Positions 2,397 to 6,029 are shown, numbered from the stretch's first letter. The stretch: DNA of 9,418 nt from a virus (IMGVR_UViG_2778261154_000013:1-9418), one strand, 5' to 3'. Translations and numbers: made by a program. Notes: generated by a model from the sequence alone, not told the origin.

Positions 2397-2459
2397 GCAA
2401 AAGTTTCCATGCTGTTTGTGCTTATTCTAAGCAACCGGGCAGCATCATACGGGGCAATT

Positions 2460-3608
2460 ATGGCCGCATTACCATACATGCAACTGTACATAGCTGATTA
2501 CCTGGCTGACACCATGCATTTGTCAGCAGAGGAGCACGGCGCGTATTTGTTGCTGATGTTCAATTACTGGCAAACAGGAAAGCCAATACCCAAAAACAGG
2601 TTGGCAAAAATTGCCCGTCTGACTAACGAGCGATGGGTTGATGTTGAACCATCCTTGCGGGAGTTTTTTTGTGATAACGGCGACGAATGGATGCATCTTC
2701 GGATTGAGGAAGATCTGGCATCTGTCAGAGAAAAATTAACCAAAAAATCAGCCGCAGGAAAAGCATCTGTTCAGGCCAGAAGAAGCAGAAAGGAAGCAGA
2801 TGTTCAAACAAAACAAGAGAGAAATTTAACAGGTGTTCAAACAGATGTTGGAGTGATGTTCGAACATGATGCCAACACAAAGGCAACTAATAAAGATACA
2901 GATAAAGATCTAAAAACAGATCTAACCCATCCCAAACCCTTCCCTTCCGGAAGGGAGTTTCGGGATTTTGTGGCTGGAGTGCTTGAGGGGAGATTATCTG
3001 GCGGTACTGCAGCGGAATTTTGTAATTCTGCGGTGGTTGCGTTGCAGGCTGCTGGCCTGGATGTCTGTCGTGAGTATCCGGTGCCAGAGCGTGGTGACGG
3101 TTGCGGAGGGCGGATTGATATCGTCGTGACTGACAGGAACGGTGTCCGGTGTGGGATCGAGCTTGACCGAAATTCTCCGCGACAGAAATCACTGCTCAAA
3201 ATCGGTGCTGTTGAAACCGGGATATGTGTCTTGCGGCGCAGTGATATCGCAAGGCACACCGAGCAGGGAATTCTGGTTATCGGTGGGGCTGTTCGCCAGA
3301 AAAAATTTGACCCGTTGTCAGTTGATCTGCCCGACTGGTTGCCAGAAACACTCTGGCATGAGTGGGTCCAGTTCAGGCAGGCATTGCGAAAACCGATTCG
3401 AACGGAGCAGGGCGCTAACGGGGCGATACGGGAACTGGAAAAATTCCGTCAGCAGGGTTTTACACCTGAGCAGGTGATTCGACACAGCATCGCCAATGAA
3501 TACCAGGGTCTGTTCGCGCCGAAAGGTGTTCGGCCTGAGACGTTGCTCCGACAGGTTAACACCGTCTCGTTGCCGGACAGTGCGATCCCGCCAGGCTTCA
3601 GGGGGTAA
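2460..3608 (+). CDS. Replication initiation-associated protein, DUF1376 (YdaU-like) N-terminal domain, 382 aa
   Basis: ORF 2409..3608; start preferred at ATG 2460 (SD GGGG, about 6-nt spacing), since ATG 2409 has no SD. N-terminus YMQLYIADYLADTMHLSAEEHGAYLLLMFNYW is the DUF1376 hallmark. Sits in the lambda O position, directly before the DnaC-like gene. Confidence 0.8.
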   Translation: MAALPYMQLYIADYLADTMHLSAEEHGAYLLLMFNYWQTGKPIPKNRLAKIARLTNERWVDVEPSLREFFCDNGDEWMHLRIEEDLASVREKLTKKSAAGKASVQARRSRKEADVQTKQERNLTGVQTDVGVMFEHDANTKATNKDTDKDLKTDLTHPKPFPSGREFRDFVAGVLEGRLSGGTAAEFCNSAVVALQAAGLDVCREYPVPERGDGCGGRIDIVVTDRNGVRCGIELDRNSPRQKSLLKIGAVETGICVLRRSDIARHTEQGILVIGGAVRQKKFDPLSVDLPDWLPETLWHEWVQFRQALRKPIRTEQGANGAIRELEKFRQQGFTPEQVIRHSIANEYQGLFAPKGVRPETLLRQVNTVSLPDSAIPPGFRG

Positions 3609-3614
3609 CAGACC

Positions 3615-4361
3615 ATGAAAAATATTGCGACAGGAGGCGTTCTGGAGCGTATCCGCAGACTGACCCCACCACATGTAACCGCCCCATTCAGAACGGTTGC
3701 GGAGTGGCGCGAGTGGCAACTTGCTGAAGGCCAGAAACGTTGCGAGGAGATCAACCGCCTGAATCGTCAGTTGCGGGTGGAAAAAATCCTGAACCGCTCC
3801 GGCATCCAGCCGTTGCACCGGAAGTGTTCGTTTGCGAATTACCGGGCGCAGAACGACGGTCAGCGACATGCACTGAGTCAGGCGAAATCCATAGCTGACG
3901 AACTGATGACAGGCTGTACGAATTTTGTGTTCAGCGGTAAGCCCGGCACCGGAAAAAATCATCTTGCAGCCGCGATTGGCAACCGGCTGATGGCGAAGGG
4001 GCGTAGCGTGATTATCGTCACCGTGTCCGATGTCATGAGCGTGTTGCATGAGAGCTACGACAACGGCAAATCCGGTGAAAAATTTTTACAGGAGCTTTGT
4101 GGTGTTGACCTGCTGGTCCTGGATGAAATTGGCATGCAGCGGGATACGAAAAACGAGCAGGTGGTACTGAACCAGATTGTTGATCGCCGGACGGCATCGT
4201 TACGCGGTGTGGGGATGCTGACAAATATTAACCATGCAGCGATGAATACACTTCTCGGCGAGCGGGTGATGGATCGCATGGTCATGAACGGCGGGCGCTG
4301 GGTGAATTTTAACTGGGAGAGCTGGCGTCCGAATGTTAGCCATTCGAGGGTTGTTAAGTAG
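3615..4361 (+). CDS. ydaV: DnaC-like replicative helicase loader (IstB-like AAA+ ATPase)
   Basis: 248 aa; Walker A FSGKPGTGKNHLAAAIG and Walker B LLVLDEIG closely resemble DnaC; start 7 nt after the upstream stop, with SD GGGGG. Confidence 0.9.
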   Translation: MKNIATGGVLERIRRLTPPHVTAPFRTVAEWREWQLAEGQKRCEEINRLNRQLRVEKILNRSGIQPLHRKCSFANYRAQNDGQRHALSQAKSIADELMTGCTNFVFSGKPGTGKNHLAAAIGNRLMAKGRSVIIVTVSDVMSVLHESYDNGKSGEKFLQELCGVDLLVLDEIGMQRDTKNEQVVLNQIVDRRTASLRGVGMLTNINHAAMNTLLGERVMDRMVMNGGRWVNFNWESWRPNVSHSRVVK

Positions 4362-4375
4362 TTTCAGGAGGATTT

Positions 4376-4798
4376 ATGGCGAAACCTTTTACTCCCGAAC
4401 AGCGGGAAGAACTGAAGACGCGAATTGTGGAACTCGTGCATCAGGACGGTCGGGTCACGATTCGGCAGTTGTCAGATGAAACAGGTATCAGTCGTGCGTC
4501 TGTCGGTCGCTTATGCATGGAACTGGTCGCAAGTGGTGATGTATATAATTCTGGCTACGGCTTATTCCCGTCTGAACAGGCTCGCAAGGACTGGCAAAGC
4601 GCCCGCAAAAAACTCTTGAGAGTAAAGGTGAGGAAACCGGTTGTTGTTGATCCGGACCTTATCTGGTCATTACCTGACGGAGAAATACGCCGCTACGACA
4701 GGCGCCTGAATATAATCTGTCGCGAGTGCCGGAAAAGCAAGGTTATGCAGCGTGTGCTGGCGTTCTATCAGGGTAACTTTCAGGAGGTGATGGCGTGA
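4376..4798 (+). CDS. Hypothetical protein with N-terminal winged-helix-like DNA-binding region
   Basis: 140 aa; SD AGGAGG 7 nt upstream; N-terminal segment VTIRQLSDETGISRASVGRLCMELVASGDV resembles a wHTH; stop overlaps the start of the next gene. Confidence 0.7.
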   Translation: MAKPFTPEQREELKTRIVELVHQDGRVTIRQLSDETGISRASVGRLCMELVASGDVYNSGYGLFPSEQARKDWQSARKKLLRVKVRKPVVVDPDLIWSLPDGEIRRYDRRLNIICRECRKSKVMQRVLAFYQGNFQEVMA

Positions 4799-5100
4799 GG
4801 GTGAGAGTTTATATTGCCGGTCCAATGACCGGGTATAAAAATTTCAACCGTGAGGCGTTCCACAAGGCGGAAGAGAAGCTGAAACAGAAAGGGTGCACGG
4901 TGTTGAATCCGGCAGTGCTTCCTGGTGGGCTGACACAGGCGCAGTACATGGATATTTGTACGGCGATGCTCCGCTGTGTGGATACGATTTACATGTTGAA
5001 AGGCTGGCATCGGTCGGCAGGTGCTAAGGCAGAACTGGCGCTGGCGGCGAAACTGGGGCATGAGGTTGTATTTCAGGAGGCAACCAGTGAGCAAGATTGA
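4795..5100 (+). CDS. DUF4406 family protein (nucleoside 2-deoxyribosyltransferase-like fold)
   Basis: 101 aa; GTG start at 4795 with SD GGAGG (4783-4787); N-terminal motif VYIAGPMTG...NF....F typical of DUF4406/NDT-like proteins; overlaps the upstream stop by 4 nt (GTGA). Confidence 0.75.
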   Translation: MRVRVYIAGPMTGYKNFNREAFHKAEEKLKQKGCTVLNPAVLPGGLTQAQYMDICTAMLRCVDTIYMLKGWHRSAGAKAELALAAKLGHEVVFQEATSEQD

Positions 5101-5695
5101 CTATCAGGCACTGCGTGAGGCGGCACAGAACGCGAAAGATTTAGGTGGGATTAAGAATTACAAGCGAGGTGAGCAAGCTGTTGCCGAATTTGAGTCCTTG
5201 ATAACGGCACACCTTGTGCTGGCACTGCTGGATGAACGGGAAAGAAACCAGCAATACATAAAACGCCGCGATCAGGAGAACGAGGAAATTGCGCTAACGG
5301 TAGGGAAGCTGCGTGTTGAGCTTGAAGCAGAAAAATCAAAACTCAACGAGCAGCGTGAGTATTACGAGGGAGTAATCGCGGATGGAAGTAAGCGCATAGC
5401 AGAACTGGAAGCACGGGAAATAAAACCAGCCAAAGGCGAAGTTCTTGTCGTTGTATCTGGTTTTACTGGTTGCGGGAAAAGCGCCATTGCCGGGGAAATA
5501 GAAATTGCGATGAAAGCTATTGGTGTGCCGGTTCTATGGACTAATGGCGATGCGGAAAAGCGCATGACAGGAGCTGACTGGCTGACAGCGATTGAGATGT
5601 ACAAACCAACTGTGCGCATCGTGGAAGTTAATGTGCCACGCGCCGCTGGCATTCGCATCAAAGGAGAGGAGCATGCAAATAAAACCAGAAGATGA
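5087..5695 (+). CDS. Ead/Ea22-like coiled-coil phage protein
   Basis: GTG start at 5087 with SD AGGAGG (5075-5080); N-terminus SKIDYQALREAAQNAKD... typical of ead/Ea22-like prophage proteins; central coiled-coil (LRVELEAEKSKLNEQREYYEG); overlaps the upstream gene by 14 nt. Confidence 0.7.
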   Translation: MSKIDYQALREAAQNAKDLGGIKNYKRGEQAVAEFESLITAHLVLALLDERERNQQYIKRRDQENEEIALTVGKLRVELEAEKSKLNEQREYYEGVIADGSKRIAELEAREIKPAKGEVLVVVSGFTGCGKSAIAGEIEIAMKAIGVPVLWTNGDAEKRMTGADWLTAIEMYKPTVRIVEVNVPRAAGIRIKGEEHANKTRR

Positions 5696-6029
5696 GTTAA
5701 GTAATATTGTTTTATTTCCGGTAAAGGAGGATGACCCACGTGATCAGGTTAATTTTCTTTATGAGCCATCGGAAAGACCATACTGCCATCACGCTTCTGT
5801 CCGGGTTGACGAAAAAGAGCGTCAGGTCCGCTGTAAAATCTGCGGTGCAGTTGTGGAGCCATTTGACTGGATGCTCTCTGTGGCGAAAAGAGAAACCAGA
5901 CTGGCAGATGATGTAAGGTTATTGCGCCAGGAGGAACAGGAAAGGCGGAAAAATATAGAAAAGCTGATACAGATTGAGCGTAACGCGAAAGCGCGGATAC
6001 GCAGGGCGACAAAATCCAGAACTGAATAA
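5673..6029 (+). CDS. Hypothetical small protein with putative zinc-ribbon (C-H-H ... C-x2-C) and basic coiled-coil tail
   Basis: ATG 5673 with SD AAGGAGAGGAG immediately upstream; the listed start at 5592 has no SD and lies deep inside the ead-like gene. Motif YCHHASVRVDEKERQVRCKICG. Overlaps the ead-like 3' end by 23 nt. Confidence 0.6.
   Translation: MQIKPEDELSNIVLFPVKEDDPRDQVNFLYEPSERPYCHHASVRVDEKERQVRCKICGAVVEPFDWMLSVAKRETRLADDVRLLRQEEQERRKNIEKLIQIERNAKARIRRATKSRTE

Follow-up and report, generated by a model that had tools for sequence, protein, structure and literature searches.

In the N-(deoxy)ribosyltransferase-like superfamily a triad of Tyr, Glu and Asp or Asn has been defined (PMC12884076), the third member of which is Asn77 in DmtZ, a phage enzyme of the nucleoside 2'-deoxyribosyltransferase (NDT) family that is found beside or fused with a dUTPase-like deoxynucleoside triphosphatase (dNTPase) and acts as a hydrolase of 2'-deoxyadenosine monophosphate (dAMP) or deoxyribose-5-phosphate transferase (PMC12884076). 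For the 5' pocket of these enzymes a rule has been given, according to which Asp or Asn is typical of nucleoside transferases and small uncharged residues are typical of nucleotide hydrolases (PMC12884076). In the crystal structures of Rcl (DNPH1) the phosphate is held by Ser87, by Ser117' of the partner subunit and by the main chain at residues 18-20 and at Gly89, and the ribose by Gly16, Gly89, Glu93 and Met119' (PMC3834327). Here we analyze a small protein of the DUF4406 family, encoded at positions 4795-5100 (+) of a viral DNA of 9,418 nucleotides (IMGVR_UViG_2778261154_000013:1-9418; this whole stretch is referred to as the window). We tentatively predict, with a probability of roughly 0.45 for the enzyme class and the substrate type taken together, that it is a DNPH1/Rcl-type N-glycosidase of 2'-deoxynucleoside 5'-monophosphates (dNMPs); with much better confidence we regard it as an NDT-superfamily enzyme that cuts an N-glycosidic bond by means of Glu80.

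The open reading frame (ORF) of 101 codons starts with GTG and ends with TGA, as evident both from the ORF list and from direct reading of the sequence, and its product opens with MRVRVYIAGPMTG. The profile search confidently assigned it to Pfam PF14359 (DUF4406; E-value 1.4e-35, 122 bits against a cut-off of 22), and since the match spans essentially the entire profile (positions 2-91 of 91) at this E-value, a chance match is excluded. PHROG 355, named "nucleoside 2-deoxyribosyltransferase", was matched as well (2e-44), while RefSeq reports at the same coordinates a 100% identical protein, WP_073861052.1, annotated as "DUF4406 domain-containing protein". The ORF and its family had been named in a preliminary description made from the sequence alone, and both were confirmed by these searches. 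The NCBIfam search of the ORF yielded no match, hence the protein has no curated name.

The AlphaFold model, built with an alignment of 90 sequences, is of high confidence (predicted local distance difference test score, pLDDT: 93.5; predicted template modelling score, pTM: 0.86) and exhibits strands at residues 4-8, 35-37, 64-67 and 90-93 with helices between them, i.e. according to the model a minimal, four-stranded variant of the flavodoxin-like alpha/beta fold of the NDT/DNPH1 type, common to the solved members. Structural matches included DUF1937 (PA1492; value in the structure table: 12.5), the cytidine monophosphate (CMP) hydrolase MilB (11.5), several nucleoside 2'-deoxyribosyltransferases (10-11), Rcl/DNPH1 (9.3) and TIR domains (8-10). 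DUF1937 (PDB 1T1J) is a separate Pfam family with 13% identity to our protein and is of no help as to the mechanism. When the PDB was searched by sequence with this protein alone, only chance matches were reported; the family profile reached the T. brucei NDT by sequence (E-value 1e-5), with YIAGP placed on YIAGP and the Glu residues aligned. The segment VYIAGPMTG, in which the preliminary description had recognized a signature of the NDT-like fold, corresponds to the beta1-loop region, i.e. to IYIAGP in the T. brucei NDT and to VYFCGSIRGG in rat Rcl, and the fold itself is upheld by the model, by the profile match to the T. brucei enzyme and by the hhalign comparison with Rcl described below. 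Judged by its fold, its Tyr and its Glu, the DUF4406 protein genuinely belongs to the N-(deoxy)ribosyltransferase-like superfamily.

For the assignment of the active-site residues, the sequence of rat Rcl was checked against PDB 2KHZ, and the DUF4406 family profile was aligned to it by hhalign. The resulting equivalences are Tyr6 with Rcl Tyr13, Gly9 with Gly16, Met11-Thr12-Gly13 with Ile18-Arg19-Gly20, Cys55 with Asp69, Asp63 with Asp77, Ser74 with Ser87, Gly76 with Gly89, and Glu80 with Glu93. The corresponding elements of the gene are as follows:

4795..5100, plus strand: coding sequence of the DUF4406 protein, 101 aa (ORF, Pfam PF14359, PHROG 355, RefSeq WP_073861052.1, AlphaFold)
4810..4833, plus strand: codons of Tyr6-Gly13 (YIAGPMTG), strand beta1 and the predicted phosphate/ribose loop (hhalign; at least 90% conserved)
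4957..4959, plus strand: codon of Cys55 (TGT), the canonical position of the triad Asp (hhalign; HMMER)
5014..5034, plus strand: codons of Ser74-Glu80 (SAGAKAE, motif S-x-G-x-x-x-E), comprising Glu80 as predicted nucleophile and Ser74 and Gly76 as predicted phosphate binders (alignments)

The SAGAKAE segment pairs with S87-L-G89-V-G-Y-E93 of Rcl, with D-C-G-T-A-F-E of the T. brucei NDT and with S-P-G-T-H-I-E of the CMP N-glycosidase BcmB. The alignment indicates that the nucleophile and all same-subunit elements with which Rcl binds the 5'-phosphate and the ribose are present in the DUF4406 protein; we call this part of the predicted site complete because the aligned residues are those that bind the ligand in the Rcl crystals. 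Conservation was measured over 426 relatives in three groups (close relatives, representatives at 50% identity, and distant relatives). In all three groups Tyr6, Asn18, Trp71, Ser74, Gly76 and Glu80 are conserved to 88-100%, and to at least 94% with the exception of Asn18 and Trp71 among the representatives at 50% identity. Residue 6 is Tyr or Phe in 157 of the 160 close relatives and Tyr in all 120 distant ones, and the entire family-invariant set, comprising the beta1 Tyr, G-P-M-(T/S)-G, Asn18, Trp71 and S-x-G-A-x-x-E, is retained in the protein from the window. Such a pattern is expected of an enzyme and not of a degenerate binder.

The residue located six positions before the Glu is Ser in the DUF4406 protein, in Rcl and in BcmB, and Asp in the T. 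brucei NDT. Together with the phosphate loop and the domain fusions described below, Ser74 leads us to infer a nucleotide rather than a nucleoside as the substrate. Many phage annotations and PHROG 355 imply a genuine nucleoside 2'-deoxyribosyltransferase, which would swap bases among deoxynucleosides for salvage. We consider this improbable: the profile of the NDT family proper, PF05014, gave only 17.5 bits, under its gathering cut-off of 28.8 bits, the Asp with which transferases bind the 5'-OH group is replaced by Ser74, and the C-terminal region for binding of the sugar and the base is absent from a 101-residue protein with four strands. In the classical enzyme from L. leichmannii it is this region that binds the sugar and the base, by way of Asn123 and the C-terminal carboxylate. 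NDTs such as those from L. leichmannii and T. brucei (2A0K) act on nucleosides, comprise ~150-160 residues and receive C-terminal elements from the partner subunit. On these three grounds, i.e. the sub-threshold score, the missing Asp and the missing C-terminal elements, the DUF4406 protein falls outside the NDT family proper. Moreover, two of three phage NDTs tested, from phages with unmodified genomes, lacked transferase activity (bioRxiv 2025.10.22.683976). As a statement of function, the database label "nucleoside 2-deoxyribosyltransferase" is probably wrong, because the residues of the active site favor a substrate with a 5'-phosphate.

A preference for the 2'-deoxy form is suggested by Tyr6. 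The N-glycosidases of CMP and hydroxymethyl-CMP, MilB, BcmB and BlsM (4OHR, 4JEN, 5VTO), act on ribonucleotides, possess Phe in place of the beta1 Tyr, exceed the DUF4406 protein in length and are part of gene clusters for antibiotic biosynthesis; Phe at this position is characteristic of the ribo-specific CMP hydrolases. This bears on a further possibility, namely that the substrate is a ribonucleotide or derives from nicotinamide adenine dinucleotide (NAD), so that the protein would be either a MilB-like hydrolase of nucleoside monophosphates or a TIR/SLOG-like destroyer of immune signals (isomers of cyclic ADP-ribose, cyclic nucleotides) with an anti-defence role. We regard this possibility as unlikely: Tyr6 is conserved, and the equivalent Tyr has been assigned a part in the exclusion of ribosylated substrates (PMC12884076). 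In addition, none of the PADLOC defence models matched the ORF, and no tie to signalling systems was seen among fusions or neighborhoods. The NDT-like effector of retron Ec86/Eco1 and the TIR domains serve host defence by depleting nucleotides or NAD, whereas DUF4406 is encoded by phages and is far smaller.

Several observations weigh against an N-glycosidase of the DNPH1/Rcl type. The third residue of the triad is Cys55 and not Asp or Asn: hhalign places it on Rcl Asp69 (Asn in the 4FYH crystal construct), the counterpart of Asp72 in the L. leichmannii NDT, and HMMER pairs an Asn of the T. brucei NDT with the same position. Cys occurs there in 159 of the 160 close relatives; in the 50%-identity representatives the position is occupied by Cys, Asp, Thr, Ala, Gly or Ser, and in the distant relatives by Ala, Asp or Gly. 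Because the triad Asp is replaced by a Cys at a position that varies across the family, catalysis may be altered or absent. Of the catalytic Glu/Asp that the preliminary description had proposed to look for in a proper alignment, the Glu is in place and near-invariant (Glu80, 94-100%), and the Asp is replaced. Furthermore, the protein stops at about Rcl residue 105, while Rcl goes on for ~45 residues, and it has no counterpart of Ser117' and Met119', which in Rcl complete the site of the partner subunit. Finally, the equivalences were derived from sequence and profile alignment and from spacing, and not from superposition of coordinates, and the hhalign match to the single Rcl sequence is by itself weak (E-value 0.06).

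The missing canonical Asp and the very small size of the protein would also suit a non-catalytic nucleotide binder or decoy, e.g. a sponge, or a protein that imitates NDT-like defence effectors and thereby spoils their assembly. We find this quite improbable: Glu80, Tyr6, Ser74 and Gly76 are near-invariant over more than 10,000 clusters, which is the pattern of an enzyme, and no sequence similarity to effectors of retrons or of other defence systems in PADLOC was found. As to the triad, Asp53 was tried as an alternative candidate and rejected, since the fixed distance of 8 residues to the Asp that precedes beta3, like both alignments, points to Cys55. Residues 19 and 53 (4849-4851 and 4951-4953) were found to covary, with Arg19/Asp53 in an enterobacterial clade and Tyr or Phe19/Arg53 in a distant clade. 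The covariation points to a contact of helix 3 with the beginning of helix 1, by which the active site may be closed; the pair resembles the Arg19-Asp62 lid described for Rcl.

For the predicted dNMP N-glycosidase we propose the following mechanism. The 5'-phosphate of the dNMP would be bound by Ser74 and Gly76 and by the main chain of the loop Gly9-Pro-Met-Thr-Gly13, and Glu80, oriented by Tyr6, would attack C1', so that the base is released and a deoxyribosyl-5-phosphate-enzyme intermediate is formed, which water would resolve to deoxyribose 5-phosphate. Delayed-early transcription after the replication module would allow the enzyme to work on the nucleotide pool in the lytic phase, and its likely role would be the destruction of unwanted or modified dNMPs. 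The family, the fold, the conserved Tyr/Ser/Gly/Glu site and the position in the operon are shown, whereas it is speculative that the reaction is a hydrolysis and not a transfer, as are the base that is released and the advantage for the phage.

If the DUF4406 domain consumes the dNMP product of a dNTP pyrophosphatase, then fusions of the two would be expected. PHROG 12019, a "MazG-like pyrophosphatase", includes a DUF4406-like segment, and the structural matches to the model in a viral library comprised two proteins with a "dATP/dGTP diphosphohydrolase N-terminal domain" and one DUF4326 fusion (BFVD: A0A6J5LQ71, A0A6J5S4N9, A0A8S5M3Y5). In Vibrio phage 1.087.A a MazG-like gene is located directly 3' of the DUF4406 homolog. 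These fusions and this neighbor fit a pathway from dNTP via dNMP to the base. Adjacency of MazG as a general association was rejected, being restricted to one group of Vibrio phages (2 loci), and among 10 longer, fusion-like relatives (200-358 aa) none revealed a second Pfam domain. A DUF4326 gene was also observed near the DUF4406 gene in one further locus (L181, 6114-6375).

In its predicted mode of action the DUF4406 protein is most like DNPH1/Rcl (PDB 2KHZ, 4FYH), without being its ortholog. It is ~50 residues shorter, has four strands, carries Cys55 instead of Asp69 and lacks the part with Ser117'/Met119', and the similarity is detectable by profiles alone. DmtZ is likewise a small phage enzyme of the NDT superfamily that acts on a dNMP, has the Tyr/Glu core, lacks the Asp/Asn that binds the 5'-OH and is linked to a dNTP pyrophosphatase (PMC12884076). 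It differs in its size (~145 residues), its five strands, the Asn at the third triad position and the lid Trp contributed by the second monomer, and it resides in the purZ0 Z-base cluster of phages with Z-genomes, whereas no such cluster was seen here.

Concerning the genomic context, a query of 1.4 kb (window 4300-5700) matches the E. coli VL40 chromosome with 100% identity. The window is part of a Rac-type lambdoid prophage, which in VL40 lies next to ttcA. Its gene order is intR/xisR, recE, the immunity region, ydaT/ydaU/ydaV-like replication genes, accessory genes, lysis genes, and lambda-like head and tail genes. The features next to the DUF4406 gene are:

3615..4361, plus strand: gene of a YdaV/DnaC-like replication ATPase (Pfam IstB_IS21 and Bac_DnaA; RefSeq context)
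4376..4798, plus strand: upstream gene of a DUF977 winged-helix protein (ORF list, Pfam, PHROG 142 "Ren-like exclusion protein")
4783..4788, plus strand: Shine-Dalgarno sequence AGGAGG, 6 nt before the GTG start of the DUF4406 gene (read from the sequence)
5087..5695, plus strand: downstream Ead/Ea22-like gene (Pfam PF13935, E-value 1.7e-24, match from the residue coded at 5090)

The DUF4406 gene is situated in the early-right operon, downstream of the replication module, because the gene of the YdaV/DnaC-like ATPase precedes it; in the identical VL40 prophage it follows the ydaU/ydaV-like genes and precedes DUF1133 and the lysis genes. The tight coupling to both neighbors stated in the preliminary description is evident: the TGA stop of DUF977 and the GTG start of DUF4406 share the tetranucleotide GTGA (4795-4798), and the Ead/Ea22-like gene starts within the DUF4406 ORF, either at GTG 5087 (overlap of 14 nt, with AGGAGG at 5074-5079) or at the ATG at 5060 chosen by RefSeq (41 nt). 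The operon had also been called "nin-like", a term that is apt for its location behind the O/P-like replication genes and inapt in the sense of homology to the nin genes of lambda: searches of Pfam, PHROG and NCBIfam gave no Nin-family match for the DUF4406 ORF, and the only, weak Pfam match to NinG in the window concerns the separate gene of an HNH endonuclease at 6342-6707. No promoter-like or terminator-like sites were found on the plus strand between 3500 and 6400, and no Rfam families overlap the region of the DUF4406 gene.

Of 80 close prophage relatives, 57 have DUF977 immediately before the DUF4406 gene and 37 have an Ead-like gene after it, and the neighbors of the DUF4406 gene are far more mosaic than the gene itself. 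A functional tie to DUF977 was considered and rejected as lineage-specific synteny, since the arrangement occurs in 57 of the 80 close loci and is absent from the distant loci examined. The DUF977 sequence was observed to be more mosaic among the relatives (44-87% identity) than the overlapping DUF4406 gene (77-95%). DUF4406 behaves as a mobile accessory gene, because its genome positions differ widely among the loci. In these loci, which include L106-type ones, it is placed between the genes of a Mu-like portal and of Mu F (L188, 3001-3315), behind an Rz lysis gene (in 22 loci), ahead of the P2 gpA replication gene (in 6 loci) or, in L190 (4523-5011), ~1.2 kb ahead of a Tad2-like gene.

In distant phages the DUF4406 gene was found directly beside a DNA methyltransferase gene, often with overlapping start and stop codons. 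Examples include Vibrio phage 1.087.A (Dam upstream), Pseudomonas phage TC7 (C5 methyltransferase upstream), Gordonia phage DelRio (methyltransferase downstream) and Mycobacterium phage Brujita (methylase upstream); in phiKO2 a Dam gene is positioned 1.6 kb upstream in the same operon. Adjacent methyltransferases of the Dam, D12, N6_N4 and C5 classes were identified, and the loci with such an arrangement are L004, L088, L091, L092, L125-type, L179, L183, L185 and L186. Among 79 viral contigs collected with a Vibrio-phage seed, a methyltransferase is encoded within 2.5 kb in 64 and directly adjacent in 18, and some contain D12-Dam, DUF4406 and a C5 methylase consecutively; many of these contigs share ancestry, so the observations are non-independent. 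In a less biased sample of 10 distant members, selected solely for a contig of roughly at least 20 kb, a methyltransferase is the immediate neighbor in four (P0313, P0339, P0331, P0359), lies one gene off in P0314 and 2 kb off in P0386, and is lacking in the other four, i.e. it occurs within 3 kb in 6/10. In these loci methyltransferases account for 4 of the 20 immediate neighbors versus 5 of the 106 other genes (Fisher p=0.035); binomial p-values for the adjacency range from 4e-5 to 3e-3, the background of 1-3% being an assumption and not a matched control. No methyltransferase was found within ~4 kb in any of the 80 close relatives, nor in the window, nor in the annotated stretch of the identical VL40 prophage.

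We speculate that DUF4406 could be a DNPH1-like partner of phage methyltransferases, which would destroy methylated dNMPs (e.g. N6-methyl-dAMP or 5-methyl-dCMP) arising from the turnover of methylated DNA; we hold this more specific role to be doubtful. It would be the phage counterpart of the sanitation of 5-hydroxymethyl-dUMP by DNPH1 in animals, and DCTPP1 is also comparable to the proposed role. A fused or adjacent dNTP pyrophosphatase would sometimes feed DUF4406, and modified bases would be kept from random re-incorporation. The copy from the window, which has no methyltransferase nearby, would treat DNA methylated by the host Dam and Dcm enzymes.

The same association admits a different partnership, namely that of a nucleosidase-like helper that acts on S-adenosylhomocysteine (SAH) or methylthioadenosine and relieves the product inhibition of the methyltransferases. 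It would agree with the fact that the adjacent enzymes of differing classes (D12, Dam, N6_N4, C5) have only the chemistry of S-adenosylmethionine (SAM) and SAH in common. Nonetheless, SAH is a ribonucleoside without a 5'-phosphate, while Tyr6 and Ser74/Gly76 argue for a 2'-deoxy-5'-phosphate ligand, the annotated stretch of the identical prophage encodes no methyltransferase that could be helped, and E. coli already possesses the Pfs nucleosidase, all of which makes such a helper very improbable. The decoy discussed above likewise gains something from the adjacency to methyltransferases in many unrelated phages, as retron Ec86, the NDT-like effector of which depends essentially on dimerization, is triggered by a phage Dcm (bioRxiv 2023.08.16.553469). 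Against it stands again the count of 0/80 close relatives with a methyltransferase nearby. Our preferred prediction remains that of a dNMP N-glycosidase.

The family is widespread. A close homolog (at least 80% nucleotide identity) is present in 585 of 5,426 complete E. coli genomes (~11%), and the exact allele of the window in just 2 of them. The HMMER search of 1.84 billion cluster representatives reported 10,646 proteins (50%-identity clusters) with E-values up to 0.001, and homologs were found in phages of Vibrio, Arthrobacter, Gordonia, Pseudomonas, Aeromonas, Escherichia, Klebsiella and Mycobacterium, with labels such as "hypothetical", "nucleoside 2-deoxyribosyltransferase", "hydrolase" or even "deoxycytidylate deaminase". 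Full-text searches of the literature for DUF4406 and PF14359 retrieved only mentions in genome annotations and no functional study or assay, in agreement with the preliminary description, according to which the role in prophages is not established. The gene itself is an already catalogued, ordinary accessory member of a common prophage family.

The window and the prophage exhibit several further features. A hok/sok toxin-antitoxin system is located at 8020-8344 (+), with Rfam sok at 8020-8194 (118 bits) and a Hok ORF that ends at 8344 (MKQQKAMLIALIVICLTVIV). A YdaU-like replication initiator is encoded at 2409-3608 (+) by a single intact ORF of 399 codons with DUF1376 at residues 22-104; its central ~130 residues have no Pfam match and may be an in-frame mosaic insert, and RefSeq splits the identical DNA into two partial pseudogene fragments. 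In the database protein P0125, residues 1-54 of DUF4406 (to YMDIC) are joined in frame with the C-terminal 46 residues of the HNH endonuclease from the window; the two parts correspond to 4795-4959 and 6342-6707, and the joint implies a deletion of ~1.6 kb between the DUF4406 and HNH genes in some prophage. The recE gene of the VL40 prophage is interrupted by IS600 (L001, 11301-14031, outside the window), and this prophage may be partly defective.

Altogether, the locus in the window is ordinary, and it is the DUF4406 family as a whole that is worth biochemical study. What is added here is a residue-level case for a 5'-phosphorylated deoxynucleotide as the ligand, the recognition of Cys55 and of the truncated architecture, and the association with methyltransferases in other phages. 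For this pairing, which involves several classes of methyltransferases, we found no report in the literature searched; it offers an entry to the sanitation of modified nucleotides, and a second direction concerns phage methyltransferases versus host defences such as retron Ec86. If the activity of a dNMP N-glycosidase is shown, thousands of annotations would be corrected, and, if the prediction is true, a widespread enzyme would join the ways in which temperate phages reshape nucleotide pools.

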